A stretch of DNA of 64,000 nucleotides from Candidatus Krumholzibacteriia bacterium (GTDB lineage Bacteria > Krumholzibacteriota > Krumholzibacteriia > Krumholzibacteriales > Krumholzibacteriaceae). Where the stretch lies: NCBI GenBank assembly GCA_963836185.1, contig CAWIIQ010000001.1, forward strand, positions 1,376,001-1,440,000, read 5' to 3'. Positions 1,800-45,494 of this stretch are shown here, piece after piece. A program made the position numbers and the translations under genes. Each line of letters begins with the position of its first letter. The first letter of the stretch is position 1. The notes beneath the pieces are model-generated. The model did not search any database, had not been told where the DNA came from, and worked only from the letters and a program-made list of their open reading frames with translations.

Positions 1800-3143
1800 A
1801 TGTCAGAGAAGATGACGAAGGAAGAACTGCTCGCCAAGTCCAAGCAGCCGGGAATCGACGCGATGAAGCTTCATCCGTTCTACAAGGGGAAGATCGCTTC
1901 CATGCCGAAATGCTGTATCAGGAACATCGATGATTTCGCGATATGGTACACGCCCGGCGTGGCCAAGCCGTGCCTCGATATCGCTGAGAATCCCGAGATG
2001 GTCTTCGAGCATACCAACAAGGCGAACTCGATCGCCGTCGTCTCTGACGGAACCCGCGTCCTCGGACTCGGCGACATCGGCCCCGAGGCGGCAATGCCTG
2101 TCATGGAGGGCAAGGCCCTGATCTTCAAGTACCTCGGTGGCGTCGATGCCACTCCCATCTGCCTTGACACTAAGGACCCCGACAAATTCATCGAGACAGT
2201 CAAGCTGCTGCAGCCCTCGTTCGGCGGCTTCAACCTCGAGGACATTTCACAGCCGAAATGCTTCCGTGTTCTCGATACGCTGCGGAAAGAGTGCCACGTA
2301 CCGGTATGGCACGATGACCAGCAGGGCACGGCGGCTGTTACCGTTGCCGGTCTTATCAACGCGGTCAAGATCGTCGACAAGAAGCTCAGCGAGGTAAAGG
2401 TCGCGATGCTCGGTGCGGGCGCCGCGAATATCTGCATCGCCAAGATGATCATCCTCGCCGGTGTCGAGCCGAAGAACATCGTCATGATGGACAGCAAGGG
2501 CATCCTCCACGAGAGCCGCGAGGCCGATCTGAAGGAGGCCTATGAGGAGAAGTGGGAGATGGCCCAGATCACGAACGGCGAGGGTCTCTCTGGCGGGCCG
2601 GAAGTCGCCATCAAGGGCGCCGACGTTCTCATCGCCCTCTCGAAGATCGGGCCGGACACGGTAAAGAAGGAATGGATCGCCTCGATGGCCGACGACTCGA
2701 TCGTGTTCGTCTGCGCCAACCCGATTCCCGAGATCTATCCCTGGGAGGCGAAAGAGGCCGGCGCGAGGATCGTCGCGACTGGCCGGAGCGATTTCCCCAA
2801 CCAGGTCAACAACTCTCTCGGATTCCCCGGTATCTTCCGCGGCACCCTCGACGTGATGGCCAAGACGATCACCGACGAGATGTGCGTTGCCGCAGCGGTC
2901 GAGCTGGCGAAGACAGCCGAGGACAACGGGATGCACGAGAACTACCTCGTTCCGACGATGGACGAGTGGGAAGTCTTCCCGCGCGAGGCCGCTGCGGTAG
3001 GCCGCAAGGCTATCGAGCAGGGTGTGGCGAGGCTTGATTTCACCTACGATGAGCTGTACAAGATGGCGGAGATGAAGATCAAGGCTGCCCGCGAAGCCTT
3101 CGATTCGCTTCAGAACAATGGATTCATCAAGATGCCCGAGTAG
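1800..3143 (+). CDS. NAD(P)-dependent malic enzyme
   Basis: YTPGVA, DGTRVLGLGDIG, NLEDI, HDDQQGTA, GAGAA, ATGRSDFPNQVNN. Confidence 0.95.
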   Translation: MSEKMTKEELLAKSKQPGIDAMKLHPFYKGKIASMPKCCIRNIDDFAIWYTPGVAKPCLDIAENPEMVFEHTNKANSIAVVSDGTRVLGLGDIGPEAAMPVMEGKALIFKYLGGVDATPICLDTKDPDKFIETVKLLQPSFGGFNLEDISQPKCFRVLDTLRKECHVPVWHDDQQGTAAVTVAGLINAVKIVDKKLSEVKVAMLGAGAANICIAKMIILAGVEPKNIVMMDSKGILHESREADLKEAYEEKWEMAQITNGEGLSGGPEVAIKGADVLIALSKIGPDTVKKEWIASMADDSIVFVCANPIPEIYPWEAKEAGARIVATGRSDFPNQVNNSLGFPGIFRGTLDVMAKTITDEMCVAAAVELAKTAEDNGMHENYLVPTMDEWEVFPREAAAVGRKAIEQGVARLDFTYDELYKMAEMKIKAAREAFDSLQNNGFIKMPE

Positions 3144-3248
3144 TGAAACGGGTAAATGGAAAAGCCTTGAACGAACCAGGCGAATAAACGAAATGGAGGC
3201 TGTCCGGCTGTTTAGCCTGGCGGCCTCCATCACAAGAAGGAGGAGAGG

Positions 3249-4361
3249 ATGTACAAGATCGCGTGGCTGCCCGGCGACGGCGTCGGAAACGAGGTCATGG
3301 AAGCAGCAAAGCTGGTGCTCGACGCACTGAAGCTCGACGCCGAGTATATCCCCGGCGATATCGGCTGGGAGTTCTGGAAGAGCGAGGGGAATCCCCTTCC
3401 TGACAGGACGATCGATCTCTGTAACAACACCGATTGCGCCCTATTCGGCGCGATCACTTCGAAGCCGCGCGACGAAGCGCTCGAGGAGCTCGCTCCCGAA
3501 CTGCGCGACAAGGGCTTCGCATACTCGAGCCCGATCGTGGCCCTGAGACAGAAGTTCGATCTGGGCGTAAACCTCAGGCCGTGTAAGGCCTTCCCCGGTA
3601 ACCCGCTGAACTTCAAGGAAGGCATCGACCTTGCCGTGTTCAGGGAGAACACTGAGGGCCTTTACGTAGGCGTCGAGTTCAATCCGGTCGAGGATGACAT
3701 GAAGGCGTTCCTCGACAGCAAGCACAAGAAATTCCACCGCTTCGTCGATACTCCGGGCGAGGATATGGCGATAAGCATGAGAATCTTTACGCGCAAAGGC
3801 TGCGAGAGGATCGTTCGCGCCGCGTTCGAATACGCGAAGAAGACGAACAGGCCTACGGTCACGATCGTCGAGAAGCCCAACGTGATCAGGGAGACGAGCG
3901 GGATGATGATCCGCGTCGCCCGCGAAGTCGCCAAAGACTTCCCCGGCATCGAGCTGTGGGAGACCAACATCGACGCGATGTGCATGTGGCTCGTAAAGAA
4001 TCCCGGCGACTACAGCGTTCTGGTAGCTTCGAACATGTTCGGTGATATCATCTCCGACCTCGCCGCGCAGCTCGTCGGCGGACTCGGTTTCGCCTCTTCG
4101 GCGAACATCGGCGAAAAGTACGCCGTATTCGAGCCGACTCACGGAAGCGCGCCTAAGTACTACGGACAGTACAAGGTCAACCCGATGGCGATGCTGCTTA
4201 CCACGCGTCTGATGCTCGAGTGGCTCGGCGAGATGGACATGGCGGCAAAGCTCGAGAAGGGTGTTTCGAAGACGATCTCGGATGGGAAGATACGCACATA
4301 CGATATGGGCGGCTCGAACACCACCCTAGAGATCGCAGAGGAAGTCGTAAGGAACATGTAA
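3249..4361 (+). CDS. Isocitrate/homoisocitrate/isopropylmalate dehydrogenase family (beta-decarboxylating)
   Basis: PGDGVG, RENTEGLY, KPNV, NMFGDIISD, FEPTHGSAP, NPMA. Confidence 0.92.
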   Translation: MYKIAWLPGDGVGNEVMEAAKLVLDALKLDAEYIPGDIGWEFWKSEGNPLPDRTIDLCNNTDCALFGAITSKPRDEALEELAPELRDKGFAYSSPIVALRQKFDLGVNLRPCKAFPGNPLNFKEGIDLAVFRENTEGLYVGVEFNPVEDDMKAFLDSKHKKFHRFVDTPGEDMAISMRIFTRKGCERIVRAAFEYAKKTNRPTVTIVEKPNVIRETSGMMIRVAREVAKDFPGIELWETNIDAMCMWLVKNPGDYSVLVASNMFGDIISDLAAQLVGGLGFASSANIGEKYAVFEPTHGSAPKYYGQYKVNPMAMLLTTRLMLEWLGEMDMAAKLEKGVSKTISDGKIRTYDMGGSNTTLEIAEEVVRNM

Positions 4362-4373
4362 CGGTTCAAACAT

Positions 4374-4403
4374 GAGGGCTGGCCCGGCGGGCCGGCCCTC
4401 TTT
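4374..4403 (+). terminator. GC-rich intercistronic hairpin with short T tail
   Basis: GAGGGCTGGCCC...GGGCCGGCCCTC-TTT between dehydrogenase and dehydratase genes. Confidence 0.45.
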
Positions 4404-4422
4404 CCGTTCAACGGGGGATCAG

Positions 4423-6330
4423 ATGGCAGGCAAGACTATTATCGAGAAGATCCTTTCCGCTCATGCGGGTAAGGAAGTTTCGGCCGGCGACGTAGTCTGG
4501 ATCGGGATCGACGTGCGCACGGCGAGGGACTTCGGCGGCGCAAGCGTCGTGAAGAACCTCAAGGAGAATTACGAGTCTCCCTGGATCGACGATCCGGCGA
4601 AGACCTGTTTCACCTTCGACTGTAACGTGCCGGCGAATACGACAGGGTACGCCGAGAACCAGCAGATATGCAGGGATTTCGCGAAGGAGACAGGCATCAG
4701 GGTTTACGACGTGAGAGCCGGTATCGGTTCGCATGTCGCGATGGAGCGCGGGTTGGCCAGGCCCGGCGAGATATTCGTCGGGACCGACAGCCACCTCAAC
4801 ATCATGGGAGCCGTCGGATGTTTCGGGCAGGGGATGGGCGACCGCGACATAGCTTACGTCTGGGGGTCCGGACGCAACTGGTTCGAAGTGCCCTCGTCTA
4901 TGAGAGTAGTCCTGGAAGGCTCGGTCGAGTATCCCGTCACGGCGAAAGATATTGCACTTGCCGTTATCAGCGAACTCGGTTCCGCCGGGGCACTCGGCAA
5001 GGTCATAGAGTTCTCAGGATCGGGTGCCGATTCTCTGAGTCTGTCAGGGCGTATAACGATTGCCAGCATGGCTACCGAGATGGGTGCTATTGCCGCCTTC
5101 CTTCCAGTCAGTGACGGGGTGGCGTCGTATATCGAAAAACGGTCAGGGGGAGGAAAGGTCGAGACAGTCACCGCCGATGTTGACGCCTCGTACGATTCCT
5201 CGATCACTATCGACCTCAACGGCCTCGAGCCTCTCGCTGCCTGTCCTTCCAGCCCATCGAACGTAAAAAAGATAAGCGAGGTTGCCGGTACGAAGATCGA
5301 CACCGCGATCATCGCCTCATGCACGAACGGCCGTTTCGAGGACATGGTACATGCCGCATCGATACTGAAGGGTAAGAGGATCAAGGACGGCACGAGCCTC
5401 AAGGTCGTCCCGGCGACAGAAGAGGTCTACGAAAGGATGCTCGAGGAAGGGATACTGAAGATATTCATTGCCGCCGGCGCACTGGTGACCAACCCGGGAT
5501 GCGGCGGTTGCGCTTCGGGACAGCTCGGAATGGTCGGCAAGGGCGAGATCCAGCTGAGCACCTCGAACAGAAACTTCGCCGGCAAGCAAGGGAAGGGCGA
5601 GACATACCTTGTCAGTCCAGCAGTCGCCGCGGCGTCGATCATCGCCGGTGAGATCACCTCTCCGGTCGGAATGGATATCGAACTGATCGATTTCGTTCCC
5701 GACGAGGAGTTCGACGGAGAACCAGCCCTGGAGGCTATCTCCTGGCTTGGCGAGGGAAAGGCATCTGGCAGGCCTGTACCGAAGTCCCACGCGGGCGAGA
5801 CCGTCGACTGTCCGAAGGTCCTGAAAGGCAGGGCGAGGATCATCACCGAACCTGACGGACGCCTGATGGACGACATCGACACCGACATGATCTTCCATAA
5901 CAAGTACCTCGCGATCACCGAGATCGCGAAGATGGGCAAGCATACATTCGAGACGCTCGACGGGTACGAGGAATTCGCGGCGAGCGTTGAGCCGGGCGAT
6001 ATCATCATCGCAGGCGGCAACTTCGGCTGCGGTTCATCGCGCCAGGCTGCCGTTGACTGTTTTATCCCTCTCGGTGTAAAACTCGTTATCACCGCTTCGA
6101 CCGGGGCGATATACAAGCGCAACATCATCAATTCGGGATTCCCCTTCCTCGAGGTTTCCGCTCTTCACGAGGCGGGAATAGAGGAGGGTATGGAGATCGA
6201 GATCGATTTCGAGAAGGGAACGATCACCCTGCCCGGCGGTAAGGTCATCGAAGCTGACAAACCTACCTCTGTTCAGCTCGATATCTGTCGTGCCGGCGGG
6301 CTTTTCGCCTATACGGGAGAGGAGGATTGA
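4423..6330 (+). CDS. Fused LeuC-LeuD-type [4Fe-4S] aconitase-family dehydratase
   Basis: Start MAGKTIIEKIL at 4423; GTDSH, SCTNGR, CGGC ligands; C-terminal swivel domain DIDTD...GGNFGCGSSR. Confidence 0.9.
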   Translation: MAGKTIIEKILSAHAGKEVSAGDVVWIGIDVRTARDFGGASVVKNLKENYESPWIDDPAKTCFTFDCNVPANTTGYAENQQICRDFAKETGIRVYDVRAGIGSHVAMERGLARPGEIFVGTDSHLNIMGAVGCFGQGMGDRDIAYVWGSGRNWFEVPSSMRVVLEGSVEYPVTAKDIALAVISELGSAGALGKVIEFSGSGADSLSLSGRITIASMATEMGAIAAFLPVSDGVASYIEKRSGGGKVETVTADVDASYDSSITIDLNGLEPLAACPSSPSNVKKISEVAGTKIDTAIIASCTNGRFEDMVHAASILKGKRIKDGTSLKVVPATEEVYERMLEEGILKIFIAAGALVTNPGCGGCASGQLGMVGKGEIQLSTSNRNFAGKQGKGETYLVSPAVAAASIIAGEITSPVGMDIELIDFVPDEEFDGEPALEAISWLGEGKASGRPVPKSHAGETVDCPKVLKGRARIITEPDGRLMDDIDTDMIFHNKYLAITEIAKMGKHTFETLDGYEEFAASVEPGDIIIAGGNFGCGSSRQAAVDCFIPLGVKLVITASTGAIYKRNIINSGFPFLEVSALHEAGIEEGMEIEIDFEKGTITLPGGKVIEADKPTSVQLDICRAGGLFAYTGEED

Positions 6331-6331
6331 T

Positions 6332-7585
6332 ATGGGCGCTAACATGATCGAGAAGATCCTGGCGAGAGCTTCGGGGAACGTCGATGTCCATGTCGGGGAT
6401 ATCGTCTTCGCGAAACCTCACATGATACTCTCTCATGACAATTCGGCGGCGATCCTGAAGATCTTCGAGGGCCTCGGCGGGAAGAAGGTCTGGGACCCGG
6501 GCCGTGTCTTTATCGCCCTGGACCACGCCGTTCCACCCCCCGATCACAAGAAGGCGAACAATCACAAGATGATCCGTGAGTTCGTCGAGAAGAACGGCAT
6601 CACAAACTTTTTTGACTGCGGCTGTGGTATCTGCCACCAAGTCCTTCCCGAGGAGGGACTCGTAGAACCCGGAACGGTCATCTTCGGATCAGATTCGCAC
6701 ACAACGACGCACGGCGCGCTCGGGGCGGCCGGTATCCCGATCGGCAGGACCGAGACGGCAAGCGTCTGGGCACTCGGTGAGACATGGCTAAAGGTGCCGC
6801 CGACGATAAAATTCGTGCTGAATGGTGAGCTGCGCGAGGGAGTCGTGGCGAAAGACATAGTGCTCTATCTCATAGGGCAGATAACAGCTGACGGTGCGAC
6901 ATACAAAGCGGTCGAGTTCCACGGCCCCGTCGTCGAAAAGATGAGTATGGGCGGGAGGCTTACTCTCTGCAACATGGCGGCCGAGATGGGCGCCAAGGCG
7001 GGAATGGTACCTTTCGACGATGTCACGGCCGAGTTTCTCAAGGGAAGGCTGAGCGGTGATTTCGAGACGGGTAATCCCGACGATGACGCCGAATACGAAT
7101 CGATCCTCGCGATAGACTGCTCGATGATAGGCCCGCAGGTGGCGAGGCCCCACAAGGTCGACAATGTCGTCGCGGCGGCCGACCTCGAAGAGACGAAGAT
7201 CGATGTCGCGCTCCTCGGGACATGCACCAACGGAAGGCTCGAGGACCTGCACCAGGCTGCGGAGATCCTGAAAGGCAGGAAGATCGCTCCCGGGGTGAGG
7301 CTTCTGGTCTATCCCGCCTCGCGAGGTATCCTCGACGAGGCTAACCGTGACGGGACATCATCGATCCTGCTTGAAGCGGGAGCCCAGGTAGCGGTGCCGG
7401 CATGTGGCCCCTGTCTTGGAGCATACGGCGGAGTCCTTGCCCCCGGCGAGAACTGCGTCTCCACGGCTAACAGGAACTTCAAGGGACGGATGGGATGCAA
7501 GGAAGACACGGGAATCTACCTCGCCAGCCCGGCGACAGTAGCACTTTCCGCAATAGAAGGCAGGATAGTATCCCCGTACGTCTGA
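6332..7585 (+). CDS. 3-isopropylmalate dehydratase/homoaconitase large subunit
   Basis: Start MGANMIEKIL after AGGAGG; SHDN, LDH, GICHQ, GSDSHT, GTCTNGR, CGPC, STANRNF. Confidence 0.92.
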   Translation: MGANMIEKILARASGNVDVHVGDIVFAKPHMILSHDNSAAILKIFEGLGGKKVWDPGRVFIALDHAVPPPDHKKANNHKMIREFVEKNGITNFFDCGCGICHQVLPEEGLVEPGTVIFGSDSHTTTHGALGAAGIPIGRTETASVWALGETWLKVPPTIKFVLNGELREGVVAKDIVLYLIGQITADGATYKAVEFHGPVVEKMSMGGRLTLCNMAAEMGAKAGMVPFDDVTAEFLKGRLSGDFETGNPDDDAEYESILAIDCSMIGPQVARPHKVDNVVAAADLEETKIDVALLGTCTNGRLEDLHQAAEILKGRKIAPGVRLLVYPASRGILDEANRDGTSSILLEAGAQVAVPACGPCLGAYGGVLAPGENCVSTANRNFKGRMGCKEDTGIYLASPATVALSAIEGRIVSPYV

Positions 7586-7604
7586 CGGGAGGGAGGATAC
7601 CGAG

Positions 7605-8114
7605 ATGGAGATAAAAGGAAGAGTCTGGATCCTCGATGATGACGACATAAACACCGACGTCATCTATCCCGGCAAGTACACCTACGAGCTCTTCTCCAAC
7701 GAGGAGATGGCAAGTCACGCCATGGAGGATTTCGACCCCGAATTCGCCTCTAAAGTAGGTGAAGGTGACGTCATAATTGCCGGTAAAAACTTCGGTTGCG
7801 GCTCGTCACGCGAGCAGGCAGTGACCTGCCTGAAGTACTCCGGAGTAGGGGCGATAGTGGCAGCGTCGTACGCGAGGATCTACTACCGCAACGCGATCAA
7901 CCAGGCCCTCTACGCGATCGAATGCCCTGAGGCCTCGGACTACGCGAGAGCTCACAAGGACGAGCTTTCGGGGAGCGAGATCACACTCGATCCCGCTGAA
8001 GGCACGATGACGCTCGGCGGACAGGAGTTCAGCTTCTCGCCGATGTCTGGGAAGGCAAGGGAGATCTTCGACGCGGGCGGACTGGCCGAGTATACGAAGA
8101 AGAAGCTCGGTTAG
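7605..8114 (+). CDS. 3-isopropylmalate dehydratase/homoaconitase small subunit
   Basis: DINTDVIYPGKY, GKNFGCGSSREQA, ARIYYRNAIN. Confidence 0.92.
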   Translation: MEIKGRVWILDDDDINTDVIYPGKYTYELFSNEEMASHAMEDFDPEFASKVGEGDVIIAGKNFGCGSSREQAVTCLKYSGVGAIVAASYARIYYRNAINQALYAIECPEASDYARAHKDELSGSEITLDPAEGTMTLGGQEFSFSPMSGKAREIFDAGGLAEYTKKKLG

Positions 8115-8153: not shown

Positions 8154-10130
8154 TTACTCCTGCCGGCCTTTTACGTCGGAGGCGCACCTGAAGCCGACTG
8201 CGATATCGACCCAGGAGTACTTGACCGCGTTTCTCGTATAGACGTTGCAGCACATCCTGCCCGAGTGCCATCCGCCTCCTCTTATCACGGCGATATACCC
8301 CTTCTCCGGGCCTGTCGGATTCTTGTACGGGCTTGTTTTGTAGAAGTCGGGGTGGAAGTAATCGTTCACCCACTCGACTACATTCCCTGACATATCATAC
8401 AGACCGTATCCGTTAGGCGGATAGCATCCGACCGGAACGGTGCCGATGAAGTTCGGGCCGACGCGGTAGTTCCCGTCGGTCGGCAGAAGCTCATCACCAG
8501 TGGGGAACTTGACGCCAATCAGGCCGCCTCTCGCGGCCAGCTCCCACTCTGCCTCTGTCGGGATGCGTTTACCTGCCCACTTGGCGTAAAGGCGCGCCTG
8601 GGAGAGGCTCACTCCTACGACAGGATAGTCGGGCCAGTCGGGGCCGCAGTGGTACTCGTCCATCCCCCAGAACTCGGGCCAGTTCTTTCCAGTCTCCTCA
8701 CAGAACCGCTGGTACTGCGCATTGGTGACCTCGTACCTGTCGATATAGAATGAATCGACGAAGACCTTGTGAGCCGGATCGTACAGTCCGTTTTCCTCAC
8801 CGCCCATGATGAATTCCGATGCGGGGACAAGCACCATATCCATCAGGGCCAGGGTTCCAGGGGGGATCGCCAGCGCTGTATCGAGCGGCGCGTCATACCC
8901 CGTAGTATGGTCTTTCCAGGTCTCCCGTATATGGATATCGAGAGGGAGCCAGGGCGAATCGGCAAGCCTGGCAACGGTGCGGTGAAAAGCTGTCGAGCAG
9001 TTGACCCTGACGCCCGAGTTCGGAAGCCTGAATGTCACTATGGATGAGCTGAGGTTTGGCGCCCCGCGCGGGAGCTCCCCGGCAAGTGTCACGCTGTCTT
9101 CCTCGCCGAGCCTCGCCGCTATCTCGACAGCGGCGCAGCATGTCTCGCGGTCCACGAGTACTACGATGTCCCTTACCGGCTGAGCGGATTTCCATTCGAG
9201 CGCACCTTCTACGAACGAATCGACGAGCGTCCCGCTTCTGCTTGTAGAACCGCGCAGGTCCAGGATCATCCTCGAAATACCTGCGTTCTCGAGTTCGGCA
9301 AGGCTCTCGGCGATGATCTCTTCTGTGTCCGGCGCGCCGTCATCGGGCCCGAAATATCTCAGTACAGCTGCAGGATTGTCGCCCTCGGCAATATCGATCA
9401 CAACAGCCTGGGTAGTTCCGACCGGGCGCAGCATCGCCTTGCCCTGAAGTGAGGTCGTGGTCCAGCCAGTATTATTGAAGGAGCTTGGAGGGATGGTCGC
9501 GAGGCTGACCTCGATCTCGATGCCGTCGTCACCGGTGAAGCACCGCGTCGACAGTGAATCTGTCGACTGCGAATCCAAGTACGTCAAGCACTTCTCCGTA
9601 CGATATCCATTCCGGGACCGAGACGAGCCATTCGGCATAGTTGTCGCGCGATATGAGGGGGCGGACGGCGGACACTGCTTTGGAGACAGGCTTTCCGCCG
9701 ATCGAGGTGAGTGTCTTCCCTGCTGCATTCTCGTATCCCGGCGCGGCGGAGACGACCCTCAGTTCACTGCCGAAATATCTCAGCTCGACAGGCAGGCGCG
9801 TGAAATGAGTATCGAGCCATTCACGTTCGATCGCTGTCGATCCGTCGCCGATCATCGCGAGAACGCGGCTCAGTTCGACCAGTATCCTTCTCGTTCTCCC
9901 AGTGGCCCGAGGCTGTCGACGAGTGCTGCCCTGGCATCACTCAGTTTATCTTCGGTGGTATTGCGGTAGAGGCCGGGATGTTCCCGGTCAAGGCGGGTGA
10001 ACAGGTCGTTGATGTCGGACTGCCAGAGTCCCGGCACCATGTGCTGTTTTCCCTCGCGGTCACCGCTGCTGCATCCGGCGGCTGCGAGAAAGAGAAAGAG
10101 GACGAACAGGGTCGTGCAAAACGATCTCAT
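8154..10130 (-). CDS. Lipoprotein with degenerate S41-peptidase-like region and C-terminal FGE/SUMF1-family domain; split by two frameshifts (~9890, ~9540)
   Basis: Lipobox LAAAGC; HPGLY; IGDGST; ILDLRG; FGE motifs YEVTNAQY, PVVGVS, RIPTEAEWE, NGYGLYDMSGNVVEW, RGGGW, GFRC; ORFs 9870-10130, 9529-9855, 8154-9728 read as one protein. Confidence 0.75.
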
Positions 10131-10149
10131 GATACCCCTCCAGGACGGT

Positions 10150-10383
10150 TCATTTCATCTCGCGCACAAGGCGGGGGATCTCTCCTTCTTCAGGAAACCT
10201 GTTGCAGACTTCGCGATCCTTTTCATAGATCACGGTATCGTCCGCGGTCACTTCGAAGATGCCGCCTTTTCCCCCGATGAGCTCGACGGTCGAACCGGGG
10301 AACTCGCTGAGCAGTTCAGCCTCCACACGGGAGGCTTCGGCGTTGTAGTCTCAAGGTACGCAGTATTCGATTCGGAATTTCAT
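10150..10383 (-). CDS. Rdx/SelW (SelT/SelW/SelH) family selenoprotein, 77 aa, in-frame UGA = Sec
   Basis: MKFRIEYCVP-U-DYNAEASRVEAELLSEFPGSTVELIGGKGGIFEVTADDTVIYEKDREVCNRFPEEGEIPRLVREMK; AGGAG RBS; IEYCxxU, GGxGGxFEV and RFPE motifs; TGA at 10351-10353. Confidence 0.92.
10318..10336 (-). promoter_or_regulatory. Bacterial SECIS element
   Basis: AGCCUCC-CGUGU-GGAGGCU: 7-bp stem starting 14 nt after the UGA, with GU in the apical loop. Confidence 0.75.
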
Positions 10384-10418
10384 CTGGTCTCCTCTTCCGG
10401 TATACACCTGAAGTGCTT

Positions 10419-10754
10419 TTAGTATCCAGCCTTCTCCGGCGGACGCCTCTCGGGAACGTACTCGTGGGGGATCATTTCCTCGTTCCATTCCTTAGAGACA
10501 TAGAGGCTGCAGTAGCAGCTCCCGAACTCGGCGACATCCGGCTCGCGGTAATCGCATGGACAGCATATGTCGTGGTCCTGCTCGCGATCGCCGCTGGCAA
10601 GGCGGCAAGGGCAGCAGAAGAAACCGTAGCGTTCCTTGTTCGTCAGCAGCCCTTCGAGCAGGCCCATCGTGAGATCAATGTCTTCGTTGAAGAAGTAGCC
10701 CTTCTTCTCCTGAAGTGGCTTGAGCCGTTCGTACAGTTTTTGAGCTTCCGTCAT
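10419..10754 (-). CDS. Ferredoxin:thioredoxin reductase catalytic-subunit family protein
   Basis: NKERYG..CPCR, DICCPC, GSCYCSLY (CPC/CPC/CxC signature), VPERRP tail. Confidence 0.92.
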   Translation of the reverse strand: MTEAQKLYERLKPLQEKKGYFFNEDIDLTMGLLEGLLTNKERYGFFCCPCRLASGDREQDHDICCPCDYREPDVAEFGSCYCSLYVSKEWNEEMIPHEYVPERRPPEKAGY

Positions 10755-11008
10755 TCCAGACCCAGCGCTTCCCGGATCTCTCTCTCCTGGAATCCGACTA
10801 TGACCGTCTCGCCGATCTGTATGGTGGGGTAGGAGACCCTCGAGTTGAGCTTTCTGACTTCCTCAACGATAGCGCGCCGCTCATCGCCTGTGAGGAGGTC
10901 GACATCTGTGGCCTCGAACTCGATCCCCTGACTGGTGAAGAACTCCTTTGTCCGCCTGCAGTGGCTGCAGGTACTGAGTGTATACATCCTGACGGTTATG
11001 TCGGTCAA
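10751..11008 (-). CDS. Glutaredoxin (NrdH/YruB-like)
   Basis: YTLSTCSHC, SYPTI, IVGF; TTG start after GAGGAGG; overlaps FTR start. Confidence 0.9.
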   Translation of the reverse strand: MTDITVRMYTLSTCSHCRRTKEFFTSQGIEFEATDVDLLTGDERRAIVEEVRKLNSRVSYPTIQIGETVIVGFQEREIREALGLE

Positions 11009-11308
11009 ACCGGTCCTCCTCGGGTTAGAAATGCGTTAATGTGCGGCCGGCTGAAATCCCTCCATGCGCCATATGGCGCATGTGCAGGGCGAAAACCGAA
11101 CCGGGCAGAAGGATTCTTACACAGAGCAGGGGCTGATGTAAAGGAAATGCAAGTTTTTACTCGACTTTCACACGTAAATCGTTATTGTACTGTGTGCACA
11201 TCGGTTTCCCCTGCGCCCGCCGGCGCATCACGGGGCCGATTCTTGCCAATTACAACTATAACTTTTTCGTATAAGAACCCCTTACGGGACAAAGACGGGA
11301 GTAGTTCG

Positions 11309-14300
11309 ATGAGCAGAAAGATGGTGACGATCGACGGAAACGAAGCAACGACCTATTCGGCTCACAAGCTGAACGAGGTCTGCGCGATCTATCCGATCAC
11401 TCCGTCGTCAGCCATGGGCGAATTCGCTGACCAGTGGTCCGCCGACGGCAGGACGAACATCTGGGGTACGATCCCCAACGTGACGGAGATGCAGAGTGAG
11501 GGAGGGGCAGCGGCGGCCGTACACGGCGCGCTTCAGCGCGGCGCTCTGACGACGACTTTTACCGCGTCCCAGGGACTGCTCCTGATGATCCCGAGCATGT
11601 ACAAGATCGCCGGCGAGCTTACGCCGACTGTCTTCCATGTCTCGGCCAGGTCGCTCGCGACCCACGCCCTGTCGATCTTCGGTGATCACAGCGACGTGAT
11701 GGCTGTACGCCAGACCGGTTTCGCCCTCCTTTCATCGAACTCGGTACAGGAAGCGATGGATATGGCTGCAATAGCCCAGATGGCCACCCTCGAGTCCCGC
11801 GTTCCCTTCCTTCATTTCTTCGACGGATTCAGGACCTCGCACGAGGTCGACAAGGTCGAACTGATCGAGGACGACCAGTACAGAGAACTGATCGACGAGG
11901 ACCTCGTAAGGGCACATCGCGACAGGGCGATGAGTCCCGACAAGCCGGTCCTTCGCGGCACCGCTCAGAATCCCGACGCCTACTTCCAGGCGCGCGAGAC
12001 GATCAACCCGTTCTACAACGCCTGCGCCGGCATCGTCATGGATGCGATGAAGAAGTTCGAGAAGGTCGTCGGCCGCAAGTACGAAATATTCCAGTATTAC
12101 GGCGCACCAGATGCCGAGAAGGTCATCATCGTAATGGGCTCCGGCGCCGAGACGGTGCAGGAGACCGTCGACTACGTCAACTCGAACGGACAGAAGGTCG
12201 GCATGGTTAAGGTGAGGCTCTTCAGACCTTTCGATGTAGACAGTTTCATAAACGCGATCCCTGCCAGCGCGAAGATGCTCGGCGTCCTCGACAGGACGAA
12301 GGAGCCCGGCGCGATCGGCGAGCCGCTCTACCAGGACGTCCTGACCGCGCTGGCCGAGAAGCACGAGCTTACAATGTCGCGCTTCAAGGATGGAATCGCC
12401 GTCACAGGCGGAAGGTACGGGCTCTCCTCGAAAGAGTTTACGCCCGCCATGGTCATGGCCGTTCTGGACAACATGTCCGCCAAGGACCAGAAGAACCACT
12501 TCACCGTCGGTATCGATGACGATGTCACGCACATGAGCCTCGATTATGACAAGGATTTCCTCGTCAAGCATCCGAATCAGACGAGGGCGGTCTTCTTCGG
12601 GCTCGGTTCCGATGGAACGGTCGGCGCTAACAAGAACTCTATCAAGATCATTGGTGAGGGAACCGACATGTACGCGCAGGGCTACTTCGTATACGATTCG
12701 AAGAAGGCCGGCTCGGTCACAGAGTCGCACCTGCGCTTCGGCAAGGACGAGATCCACTCGCCCTACCTGATCGCAAAGGCCGACTTTGTAGCATGTCACC
12801 TGTTCCCCTTCATGGAGAGGATCGATATCCTCAAGTACGCGACAGAGGGAGGGACCTTCCTTCTCAACAGCCCCTTCCCCGCAGATGAGACCTGGGACCT
12901 GCTGACATACGAGGTCCAGAAGGCGATCATCGACAAGAAGCTCGAGTTCTACGTGATCGACGCCAACGAGATCGCCACCGAGCTGGGGCTAGGGGGCAGG
13001 ATCAACACGATCATGCAGACCGGCTTCTTCATCCTCGGCGGAGTACTCCCCAAGGAAGAGGCGATCGAAGCGATCAAGAAGTCGATCAAGAAGACATACG
13101 GACGCCGCGGCGAGAAGGTCGTCAAGATGAACGAAGCGGCCGTCGACGCTACCGAGGCGAACCTGCACAAGATCGAGGTTCCTGCCGAGCCGACGAGCAA
13201 GCTGCACATGATCCCGCCGGTACCCGAGGATTCACCCGAGTACGTGCGTGAGGTCATCGGAAAGCAGATCGCCCGTGACGGAAACGATATTCCGGTCAGC
13301 GCGTTCGCTCCCGACGGTTCGTTCCCTACAGGGACGACGAAGTACGAGAAGCGCAACATCGCCCTCGAGATCCCCGTCTGGGATCCCGACGTCTGTATCC
13401 AGTGCGGCAAGTGCGTTCTTATATGCCCCCACGCAGTAATCAGGGCGAAAGTCTATGACGCCGACAAACTCGAAGGCGCACCCGAGACCTTCAAGTCGGC
13501 CGACGCGGTTGCGAAGGATTTCAAGGGCAAGAAGTTTACAATACAGGTGGCTCCCGAGGACTGCACAGGCTGTACCCTCTGCTTCCAGACCTGTCCTGCC
13601 AAGAACAAGGAAGAGGAAGGGAAGAAGGCGCTCAACATGGCGCTGCAGCCCCCTCTGAGGGCGACGGAGAAGCCGAACTGGGAGTTCTTCAAGGGCCTCC
13701 CGTACATCGACCGCGGAGAGATCAATGCGACCGCTACGAGGACCGTACAGTTCCTCGAGCCTCTCTTCGAGTTCTCCGGCGCCTGCGCAGGATGCGGCGA
13801 GACGCCGTACGTGAAGCTGCTTACCCAGCTCTACGGCGACCGCACCATGATCGGGAACGCCACGGGCTGCTCCTCGATCTACGGAGGCAACCTGCCGGCG
13901 ACACCGTACACGATGGACAAGAACGGACGCGGCGTTACCTGGAGCAACTCGCTCTTCGAGGACGCTGCCGAGTTCGCGTTCGGTATGAGGCTCGGTCTGG
14001 ACAAGCAGATCGAGTATGCAAGCGAGATGGTACAGAGAGTCTCCGGCCAGATCGGTGACGAACTGACGAAGGGGATCCTCGAAGCGGACATGAGCGACGA
14101 GAACGGTATCCGCGAGCAGAGGGCAAGAGTCGTCGCCCTTCGCGAGAAACTTGCCGCTATCGATACGCCTGACGCGAAGAACCTCGCCGGCCTCGCAGAT
14201 GTCCTCGTCAGGAAGAGCGTATGGGCGCTTGGAGGCGACGGATGGGCATACGATATCGGGTACGGCGGCCTCGATCACTCGCTGGCGCTGGGGCGTAACC

Positions 14301-14899
14301 TCAACGTGCTGGTGATGGACACCGAGATCTACTCGAACACGGGCGGCCAGATGTCGAAGGCGACGCCGATGGGTGCGATCGCGAAGTTCGCTGCCGCCGG
14401 CAAGCAGATGCCGAAGAAGGACCTCGCAATGATGATGATGTCGTACGGATACATCTACGTCGCGAGGATCGCGTTCGGCGCCAACGAAGGCCAGGCGATC
14501 AAGGCATTCATCGAGGCGGAGGCCTACGATGGACCGTCGATCATCATCGCCTACTCGCACTGCATCGGGCAGGGCCTCGACATGAGGCGCGGGCTCGACC
14601 AGCAGGCGCTGGCCGTCAAGACGGGTTACTGGCCGCTGGTCAGGTACAACCCCGACCTGCGCAGCGAGGGCAAGAATCCTCTGCAGCTCGACTCGAAGGC
14701 CCCGAGCATCCCGCTCGAGGATTACATCTACAACGAGAACCGCTACCGCGCCGTCAAGGCGAGGGACCCGGAGATGGCTGCCGACCTTCTGAAGAGGGCG
14801 CAGGCAGACGTCGAACCGCCGCTGGAAACTCTACGAGTACTGGGCCGCGATGCCCGGGCCCGATGCAGAATCCAAGTAGCATCCGGAGCGGATAGATGA
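11309..14899 (+). CDS. nifJ: Pyruvate:ferredoxin/flavodoxin oxidoreductase (homodimeric)
   Basis: Start MSRKMVTIDGNEA at 11309; YPITPS, EMQSEGGA, two CxxCxxC..CP ferredoxin motifs, FSGACAGCGE, GGDGWAYDIG; true C-terminus probably ends 14879 (frameshift). Confidence 0.96.
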   Translation: MSRKMVTIDGNEATTYSAHKLNEVCAIYPITPSSAMGEFADQWSADGRTNIWGTIPNVTEMQSEGGAAAAVHGALQRGALTTTFTASQGLLLMIPSMYKIAGELTPTVFHVSARSLATHALSIFGDHSDVMAVRQTGFALLSSNSVQEAMDMAAIAQMATLESRVPFLHFFDGFRTSHEVDKVELIEDDQYRELIDEDLVRAHRDRAMSPDKPVLRGTAQNPDAYFQARETINPFYNACAGIVMDAMKKFEKVVGRKYEIFQYYGAPDAEKVIIVMGSGAETVQETVDYVNSNGQKVGMVKVRLFRPFDVDSFINAIPASAKMLGVLDRTKEPGAIGEPLYQDVLTALAEKHELTMSRFKDGIAVTGGRYGLSSKEFTPAMVMAVLDNMSAKDQKNHFTVGIDDDVTHMSLDYDKDFLVKHPNQTRAVFFGLGSDGTVGANKNSIKIIGEGTDMYAQGYFVYDSKKAGSVTESHLRFGKDEIHSPYLIAKADFVACHLFPFMERIDILKYATEGGTFLLNSPFPADETWDLLTYEVQKAIIDKKLEFYVIDANEIATELGLGGRINTIMQTGFFILGGVLPKEEAIEAIKKSIKKTYGRRGEKVVKMNEAAVDATEANLHKIEVPAEPTSKLHMIPPVPEDSPEYVREVIGKQIARDGNDIPVSAFAPDGSFPTGTTKYEKRNIALEIPVWDPDVCIQCGKCVLICPHAVIRAKVYDADKLEGAPETFKSADAVAKDFKGKKFTIQVAPEDCTGCTLCFQTCPAKNKEEEGKKALNMALQPPLRATEKPNWEFFKGLPYIDRGEINATATRTVQFLEPLFEFSGACAGCGETPYVKLLTQLYGDRTMIGNATGCSSIYGGNLPATPYTMDKNGRGVTWSNSLFEDAAEFAFGMRLGLDKQIEYASEMVQRVSGQIGDELTKGILEADMSDENGIREQRARVVALREKLAAIDTPDAKNLAGLADVLVRKSVWALGGDGWAYDIGYGGLDHSLALGRNLNVLVMDTEIYSNTGGQMSKATPMGAIAKFAAAGKQMPKKDLAMMMMSYGYIYVARIAFGANEGQAIKAFIEAEAYDGPSIIIAYSHCIGQGLDMRRGLDQQALAVKTGYWPLVRYNPDLRSEGKNPLQLDSKAPSIPLEDYIYNENRYRAVKARDPEMAADLLKRAQADVEPPLETLRVLGRDARARCRIQVASGADR

Positions 14900-24421: not shown

Positions 24422-24519
24422 GGGAATGGATGGGTTCTGGTGGGCCCCGAGGACTTCAAATCCTTATGCCGGGTGCTAAAACCATCCGGGGTGGGTTCGA
24501 TTCCCACACGTTCCCGCCA
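24422..24519 (+). tRNA. selC: tRNA-Sec (anticodon UCA)
   Basis: 98 nt; GGGAAUG../..CGUUCCC-G-CCA acceptor, GGGUUC-UGGU-GGGCCC D arm, GGA-CUUCAAA-UCC anticodon arm, long variable arm, GUGGG-UUCGAUU-CCCAC T arm. Confidence 0.93.
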
Positions 24520-39453: not shown

Positions 39454-39528
39454 GGGCCCATAGCTCAGCGGTAGAGCTCCCGGCTCATAACCGGTCGGTC
39501 ACAGGTTCAAATCCTGTTGGGCCCACCA
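39454..39528 (+). tRNA. tRNA with CAU anticodon, probably tRNA-Ile2 (lysidine)
   Basis: GGGCCCA../..TGGGCCC-A-CCA cloverleaf; CTCATAA loop; paired 1-72 excludes fMet; C4-G69/C5-G68 and position after rpoD favour Ile2. Confidence 0.88.
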
Positions 39529-45123: not shown

Positions 45124-45494
45124 GGCGGAGCGGACGGGATGATCGCGGCCCCTTCGGGGTGTTCGAGGAAAGTCCGAGCTCCACAGGGCAGGGTGCTGGG
45201 TAACTCCCAGTGGGGGTGACCCCAAGGAAAGTGCCACAGAAAATATACCGCCACCGGCTTGCCGGTGGTAAGGGTGAAATGGTGAGGTAAGAGCTCACCG
45301 GTGCCCCCGGTGACGGAGGCAGCCAGGTAAACCCCACCCGGAGAAAGACCAAATAGAAGAGGAGAAGCGGCCCGCTTCGCTTGACTCTCGGGTAGGTCGA
45401 TCGTGGCCCGCGGAGACGCCGGCCCCAGATAAATGATCATCACCTGTCCGCTCGCGGACAGGGACAGAACTCGGCTTACGAGTCCGCTCCGCCG
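45124..45494 (+). ncRNA. rnpB: RNase P RNA (type A)
   Basis: GAGGAAAGTCC, AGTGCCACAGAAA, GGTAAACCCC, ACAGAACTCGGCTTAC; P1 GGCGGAGCGGAC/GTCCGCTCCGCC. Confidence 0.97.

Follow-up and report, generated by a model that had tools for sequence, protein, structure and literature searches.

Locus and gene neighbourhood

The window, which is the whole 64,000-nt stretch of DNA analysed here, carries on its minus strand (10383-10150) a frame that continues past an in-frame TGA. Its read-through product has 77 amino acids: MKFRIEYCVP, the TGA of codon 11 (10353-10351), and 66 sense codons, closed by a terminal TGA at 10152-10150. A Shine-Dalgarno-like AGGAG (10389..10393, minus strand) is located 5 nt upstream of the ATG (10383-10381), and a GA-rich element akin to it precedes the start in the relatives G001, G002 and L103. 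Cys8 (TGC, 10362-10360) and the TGA delimit the motif Cys8-Val-Pro-Sec11 (10351..10362). The frame also contains GGKGGIFEV (residues 37-45, 10249..10275), a GxFEV-type Rdx motif in which G41 and F43 are nearly invariant, and RFPEEGEI. Cys60 (10204..10206), in the sequence VCNRFP, belongs to a short loop insertion preceding RFP; it is fixed in the clade and sporadic in the family. Ribosome binding site, ATG, IEYCVP-TGA, the 66 further codons and the Rdx motifs were thus all present on the minus strand, as the preliminary description of this DNA had stated.

At this locus the ORF list gives just two entries, a piece of 58 aa that starts at GTG (10326-10150) and, overlapping it, a plus-strand ORF (9997-10422). 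The in-frame GTG (10324..10326, minus strand) falls on the SECIS hairpin loop described below and acts as a false start for gene callers; the 58-aa stub has no CxxU active site. The public protein from the source contig is this stub, and 17/17 close homologues returned are also 58 aa long.

The Rdx gene is the third of a tightly packed minus-strand run of glutaredoxin/NrdH-like, FTR, Rdx and FGE-domain genes. The glutaredoxin/NrdH-like protein (CSHC; 10751..11008, profile search) overlaps the start of the ferredoxin:thioredoxin reductase catalytic-type subunit (FeThRed_B, PF02943, 72.6 bits; 10419..10754), which is separated from the start of Rdx by 35 nt. Downstream of Rdx is a gene for a lipoprotein-like product whose middle part is S41-like and whose C-terminus carries an FGE-sulfatase domain (8154..10130, minus strand); the gene is frameshifted here into three frames and forms a single 657-aa ORF in G001. 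No terminator-like site was found by scanning the minus strand between 11008 and 8154, and the promoter scan returned 2 promoter-like sites against 1.3 expected. A pyruvate:ferredoxin oxidoreductase (PFOR) gene is divergent from the run (10961..14899, plus strand; likely ATG at 11309).

An FTR match was obtained in 29/208 genomes of the phylum, with the glutaredoxin gene upstream in 29/29 of these loci. Rdx follows the Grx-FTR pair in three of the 29, all from one genus (3/7 genus members), while at the other 26 no Rdx lies within about 1.5 kb. The idea that Rdx belongs invariably to the Grx-FTR operon was rejected, since the PFOR-Grx-FTR-FGE synteny of G003-G006 and G008 is maintained in its absence; Rdx is accessory in this slot.

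Several other features were recorded around the run. The FGE-domain gene follows Grx-FTR in all six genus members whose contig reaches that far, and in G008. The FTR proteins L063 and L064 (G067, G020) have a C-terminal extension with two CxxC pairs, which looks rubredoxin-like and may resemble the Methanosarcina FDR. ORFs at 1800-8114 (plus strand) resemble, as read from their translations, malic enzyme, isocitrate/isopropylmalate dehydrogenase and aconitase-family subunits, and this series converges on the Rdx gene run. The window further holds a class A RNase P RNA at 45127-45494 (+) and a tRNA-Met at 39454-39528 (+).

Family membership and predicted fold

The Rdx identity proposed for the read-through protein was borne out by HMM search, in which it passed both family cut-offs: 64.5 bits for Pfam Rdx PF10262 (cut-off 22.6) and 47.2 bits for TIGR02174 (cut-off 34.2). 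The 58-aa piece scored 26.4 against the latter, below the cut-off. The Campylobacter equivalog NF041051 (SelTWH_Campy) gave the read-through protein 80.9 bits, under its cut-off of 88. C8-V-P-U11 follows the first strand, and G41-I-F43-E44 has the form GxFE/D of the family motif. The profile search found one Rdx match in the source genome.

An AlphaFold2 model, built from a 62-row alignment with Sec folded as Cys, had a mean pLDDT of 88.7 and the order strand-helix-strand-strand-strand-helix. The top Foldseek matches were the SelW-related structures 2fa8, 2oka and 2obk (TM 0.82-0.87), followed by mouse SelW and MIEN1, which places the predicted model (Sec as Cys) within the Rdx / SelT-SelW-SelH structural family. 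The fold is shared with the Cys-containing Rdx structures 2fa8 (Atu0228), 2oka, 2obk, 2ojl, 3dex and 2p0g, with mouse SelW (2npb) and with human MIEN1 (2ljk). Sequence identity to the bacterial ones, at these TM values, is about 30-36%; unlike the source protein, those aligned have CxxC as their motif, the C-terminus is longer and the loop contains no Cys.

Conservation of the UGA and coding selection around it

Within a set of 41 genomes (the source genome and 40 relatives), 14 had an Rdx match, with one in-frame TGA in each. Across the phylum, Rdx matches were obtained in 136/208 genomes, and 137 of the 138 matches contain one in-frame TGA; the exception begins at profile position 18, beyond the CxxU motif. 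The position of the TGA was read in 40 parsed loci (14 from the 41-genome set plus 30 from the phylum set, less 4 duplicate genomes), and the arrangement was C-x-x-TGA in 40/40. Database proteins, limited to those of at most 150 aa, were aligned as well (n=147). CxxC was present in 71 of the 147, the query row aside, which supplies the homologues with Cys at the UGA position that had been sought as a check; 36 were truncated and 35 had CxxW, and one of the CxxW proteins has a TGA in its own genome.

The search for related loci returned 4 genome loci and 1 metagenome locus. Codons that differ in G001, G002 and L103 were compared in the Rdx frame and in the plus-strand ORF, which is in exact codon register with it. 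Upstream of the UGA, 12/13 changed codons were synonymous in the Rdx frame and 1/13 in the antisense frame; downstream the figures were 34/79 and 12/79, giving 46/92 against 13/92 over all changed codons. The synonymous bias before the UGA indicates that the ten upstream codons are under coding selection and that the plus-strand ORF is a shadow. As had been suspected, this ORF (9997..10422) exists and is spurious: it has no Pfam match and was rejected as a gene on this ground and on the codon comparison.

The TGA is present in independent assemblies. Four contigs from three public runs cover 10351-10353; they belong to relatives at about 80-99% identity and not to the source sample, and among the 40 of 54 rows listed no difference from TGA was seen. 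Among the public sequencing runs carrying related sequence, no RNA run was listed, and the DNA runs all contained small shares.

SECIS hairpin

The hairpin AGCCUCC-CGUGU-GGAGGCU (10318..10336, minus strand) has a 7-bp stem, and its loop CGUGU (10329-10325) starts 21 nt past the UGA, where the preliminary description had placed it. Published bSECIS criteria ask for a loop of 3-9 nt with G in its first two positions, 16-37 nt from the UGA, a stem of 4-16 bp and an energy of at most -7.5 (as given in PMC13188914). The Rdx hairpin has a 5-nt loop with G in second position, a distance of 21 nt, 7 bp and -11.2 kcal/mol, and so falls within all of those given there. A qualifying hairpin followed 93/3534 random TGA triplets of the genome at -7.5 and 26/3534 at -10 kcal/mol, a level that the Rdx hairpin exceeds. 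The folding z was -2.35 for a 36-nt piece, and four longer segments gave -0.5 to -1.0. Taken by itself, the folding energy supports the reading weakly, and the strong evidence comes from comparison between genomes.

All 40 homologues share the loop G. Five of the seven stem pairs change on both sides, giving 34 covarying cells against a shuffled mean of 13.5 (0/500 shuffles) and 3-12 cells in slid controls, figures that are inflated by the relatedness of the sequences and by the choice of the structure from the source sequence. Pairing is kept in 33-40 of the 40 rows at the five inner positions and is lost in 17 and 15 rows at the two outer ones. The strict hairpin rule missed the SECIS of selD, so it under-calls real elements.

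Family cut-offs, predicted fold, conserved TGA, covarying SECIS and synonymous conservation together support the gene as an Rdx/SelW CxxU selenoprotein. Very probably, it encodes a 77-residue Rdx/SelW protein whose UGA11 is decoded as Sec by means of the hairpin, and whose Cys-x-x-Sec is a predicted thiol/selenol oxidoreductase site.

Relation to known SelW-like proteins

SELENOW-like PF10262 proteins with CxxU already stand in tables of prokaryotic selenoproteins (PMC9312934, PMC13188914, in the parts that deal with them), and the function of the bacterial SelW-like entry is listed as 'predicted' in the latter. The source protein resembles the bacterial SELENOW-like/Rdx group (PF10262, TIGR02174) in CxxU, GxFEV, RFP, length, fold and in-ORF SECIS. 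It differs in its two-residue loop insertion with Cys60 and in the slot of its gene after the Grx-FTR pair. For SelW of Campylobacter jejuni, Ribo-seq and proteomics have documented read-through of the UGA to the full-length protein (relevant part of PMC11955535), and SelW genes have been reported as overlooked by annotation (relevant part of PMC4607533). Campylobacter SelW (C. jejuni selW on CJnc60) is like the source protein in size, in UGA position and in having been missed by annotation, and some members (7/28) also have a Cys in the same loop. It differs in phylum and gene context, and the source protein stays below the NF041051 cut-off given above.

The Rdx gene therefore belongs to a known, catalogued selenoprotein family that is common in the phylum, and the truncation of such genes by gene callers has already been published; what sets this member apart is confined to its loop Cys and its local operon, neither of which generalised. 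The significance of the locus is mainly one of annotation correction, the public entry being a stub without the active site for a type of gene found in 136 of the 208 phylum genomes.

Proposed mechanism and reductant

By analogy with established bacterial Sec decoding, SelB carrying Sec-tRNA would bind the GU-containing loop and deliver Sec. The family fold suggests that Sec11 would then attack a partner protein at an oxidised thiol or a disulfide, and that Cys8 would resolve the Sec11 adduct to a selenenylsulfide, after which the site would be re-reduced. No gshB match was obtained in the source genome (92.5% complete); TrxB and two thioredoxins scored over their cut-offs. Because the genome is without detectable glutathione synthetase, the reductant would likely be either TrxB/thioredoxin or the glutaredoxin-FTR pair, which is co-oriented with Rdx and would receive its electrons from the neighbouring PFOR through ferredoxin. 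The ferredoxin-fed pair is a real possibility as the Rdx reductant, at well under even chances. Its position beside Rdx makes it a concrete candidate, but only three genomes, all of a single genus, show this link.

Related chemistry is on record for other proteins. The CxxC of MIEN1 is redox-active at -225 mV (as stated in PMC3527542), and Methanosarcina has FTR-related ferredoxin:disulfide reductases that act on atypical thioredoxins, reducing them (PMC6262447, in the portion describing these enzymes). The FeThRed_B and Grx/NrdH-like pair resembles the Methanosarcina FDR/FTRc-like enzyme and atypical thioredoxin of that portion, and could be ferredoxin-fed. The same portion mentions no Rdx partner, whereas here Rdx is an accessory at 3/29 loci.

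The loop cysteine Cys60

Cys60 sits in a two-residue insertion before RFP. All 17 of the close homologues from the database retain it, as do G001, G002 and L103, while the loop Cys occurs in 5/40 phylum Rdx proteins and is absent from 35/40. It was also present in 7/28 Rdx proteins of a class sample around a Campylobacter genome.

These patterns bear on a more ambitious reading, in which Cys60 would be a dedicated resolving cysteine and Rdx the specific partner of the FTR-glutaredoxin pair, in a chain PFOR->ferredoxin->FTR->Rdx. A three-chalcogen Rdx (Cys8, Sec11, Cys60) would then have been recruited, in this sub-lineage, into a PFOR-linked glutaredoxin-FTR operon, with the repeatedly gained Cys as a resolving or relay residue. 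If true, Rdx would be a ferredoxin-reduced selenoprotein, and a bacterial SelW-like protein would for the first time have been assigned a physiological reductant. The conservation of Cys60 among the close homologues and in G001, G002 and L103 is in keeping with it, and so is the pattern within family f1, where FTR occurs in 5/5 genomes with the loop Cys and an FTR match in 0/4 of those lacking it; this pattern rests on two clades at most. The loop Cys was found in 0/71 CxxC representatives and in 5/55 truncated or CxxW (probably UGA) ones, for which Fisher's test gave p 0.014 with rows that are not independent and with one protein having Cys after RFP left out. On a 50-row tree the trait took about 7 changes, at least 3 of them forced, the tree being poorly resolved, made from a short alignment and inclusive of the trait column.

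Against this, an FTR match was found in 0/7 loop-Cys genomes of the Campylobacter-centred class, where Rdx and FTR occur together in 3 genomes against about 8 expected; the loop Cys was accordingly rejected as a general marker of FTR partnership. Most phylum Rdx proteins lack it, and most FTR loci lack a nearby Rdx. The chain with Cys60 as its dedicated residue is for these reasons unlikely, whether taken as a specific partnership or as a three-chalcogen relay. Most probably Cys60 is accessory, a surface cysteine that catalysis does not need. Cys8 is a more natural resolving partner than Cys60, for which the preliminary description had suggested that role; in the thioredoxin-fold chemistry of Rdx, Cys8 presumably already is one.

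A Cys-Cys pair occupies the same loop in the Rdx proteins of L011 (G015) and L014 (G018). Both adjoin ORFs that resemble, from their translations, heterodisulfide reductase B/C subunits.

Selenocysteine machinery of the source genome

The tRNA-Sec gene (selC, anticodon TCA) is located in the same window as Rdx, as had been claimed, at 24422..24519 on the plus strand (ARAGORN, Rfam RF01852). Of the three further genes that the preliminary description had asked for, selA and selD were recovered and selB was not in intact form. The selA match is full length (502.6 bits), and selD passes its cut-off with 356.6 bits (L004, G000:C1:1062116, plus strand) and has an in-frame TGA of its own. For selB no match over cut-off was obtained in the source genome; only frameshifted pieces were found, at C1:47922-49803, which together cover the gene over its full length.

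Compared with three intact orthologues, selB has 11-13 frame-shifting insertions and 2-3 deletions (14-16 indels in total), mostly single-base insertions, and its reading frame is broken into no fewer than five segments. The indel density is 8.8 per kb, against 0-5.3 per kb in neighbours. Between selB and its intact orthologues the first+second/third position mismatch ratio is 0.42-0.56, and among the orthologues themselves it is 0.38-0.58; no in-register stop substitution was found relative to them. Four of nine neighbours tested, all in the same 14 kb (prfA, prmC, murA and yicC), are frameshifted too, as is one of the two EF-Tu copies. In other genomes selB scores over cut-off: 37/41 in the whole set and 37/40 of the relatives, including 6/6 other genus members and 13/13 relatives that carry Rdx-TGA. 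The four genomes without it are the source and three that are 61-84% complete.

The frameshifts of selB therefore have two readings. Rdx might be a genuine selenoprotein gene of the lineage that went silent in this strain when real decay of selB recently abolished Sec decoding. The break-up into at least five segments by insertions and deletions agrees with such a loss, and since the indel density exceeds that of nearby genes, real decay keeps a small share of the probability. It is a quite improbable explanation nevertheless: the mismatch ratio is that of intact orthologues, in-register stops are absent, the indels are chiefly single-base insertions, and four of the nine neighbours tested and an EF-Tu copy are frameshifted too. 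All six other genus members have selB over cut-off, and selA, selC, selD and the PrxU gene of the source genome look intact. Judged from this sequence pattern, uncorrected long-read error is most likely the cause of the selB frameshifts. Because the indels are present and denser than in the neighbours, it cannot be taken for granted that this particular strain decodes Sec.

Assembly errors of this kind offer a foothold for a further view, that the TGA either truly ends translation or results from a sequencing error and that the product is the publicly called 58-aa GTG-started protein or the plus-strand ORF, which hardly deserves credence given the recurrence of the TGA in independent assemblies, its unchanged state in the four contigs from three runs among the rows listed, the stub's want of CxxU and of a TIGR02174 score above cut-off, the lack of a family match and of synonymous conservation in the plus-strand ORF, and the contradiction by the phylum-wide TGA count, the SECIS covariation and the codon comparison.

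Insertion-biased assembly errors are apparent over selB (G000:C1:47915-49830; L003, L032) and the surrounding 14 kb, and apparent pseudogenes in the source genome are therefore to be treated with caution.

Other selenoprotein candidates

Further genes with an in-frame TGA were observed in the source genome. A PrxU selenoperoxiredoxin (TxxU; L028, G000:C1:693102, plus strand) scored 412.5 against a cut-off of 270. A TlpA-like protein with UxxC and a long N-terminal extension (L029, G000:C2:103354, plus strand) is likely a selenoprotein.

The gene at G000:C1:545104-546345 (plus strand; L030/L133) encodes an exported-looking FG-GAP repeat protein with a C-terminal FlgD_ig/Por_Secre_tail and an in-frame TGA. 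It matched no selenoprotein NCBIfam model and gave no ASPIC-UnbV hit. FG-GAP, VCBS, T9SS and FlgD are unmentioned in the main text of PMC13188914, PMC12013277 and PMC13326102, and the literature search returned nothing. Homologues (L134-L142) bring the genomes matched at E<=1e-40 to 10/41. Eight genomes (55-83% identity to the query) share the position of the TGA, and 2 (G021, G037) have Cys there; the protein is on these grounds a candidate for an uncatalogued UGA/Cys selenoprotein family. The motif around the TGA is GG-U-M/L-G-x-FPRV, and a conserved CGCG-stem hairpin is located about 20 nt downstream of it.
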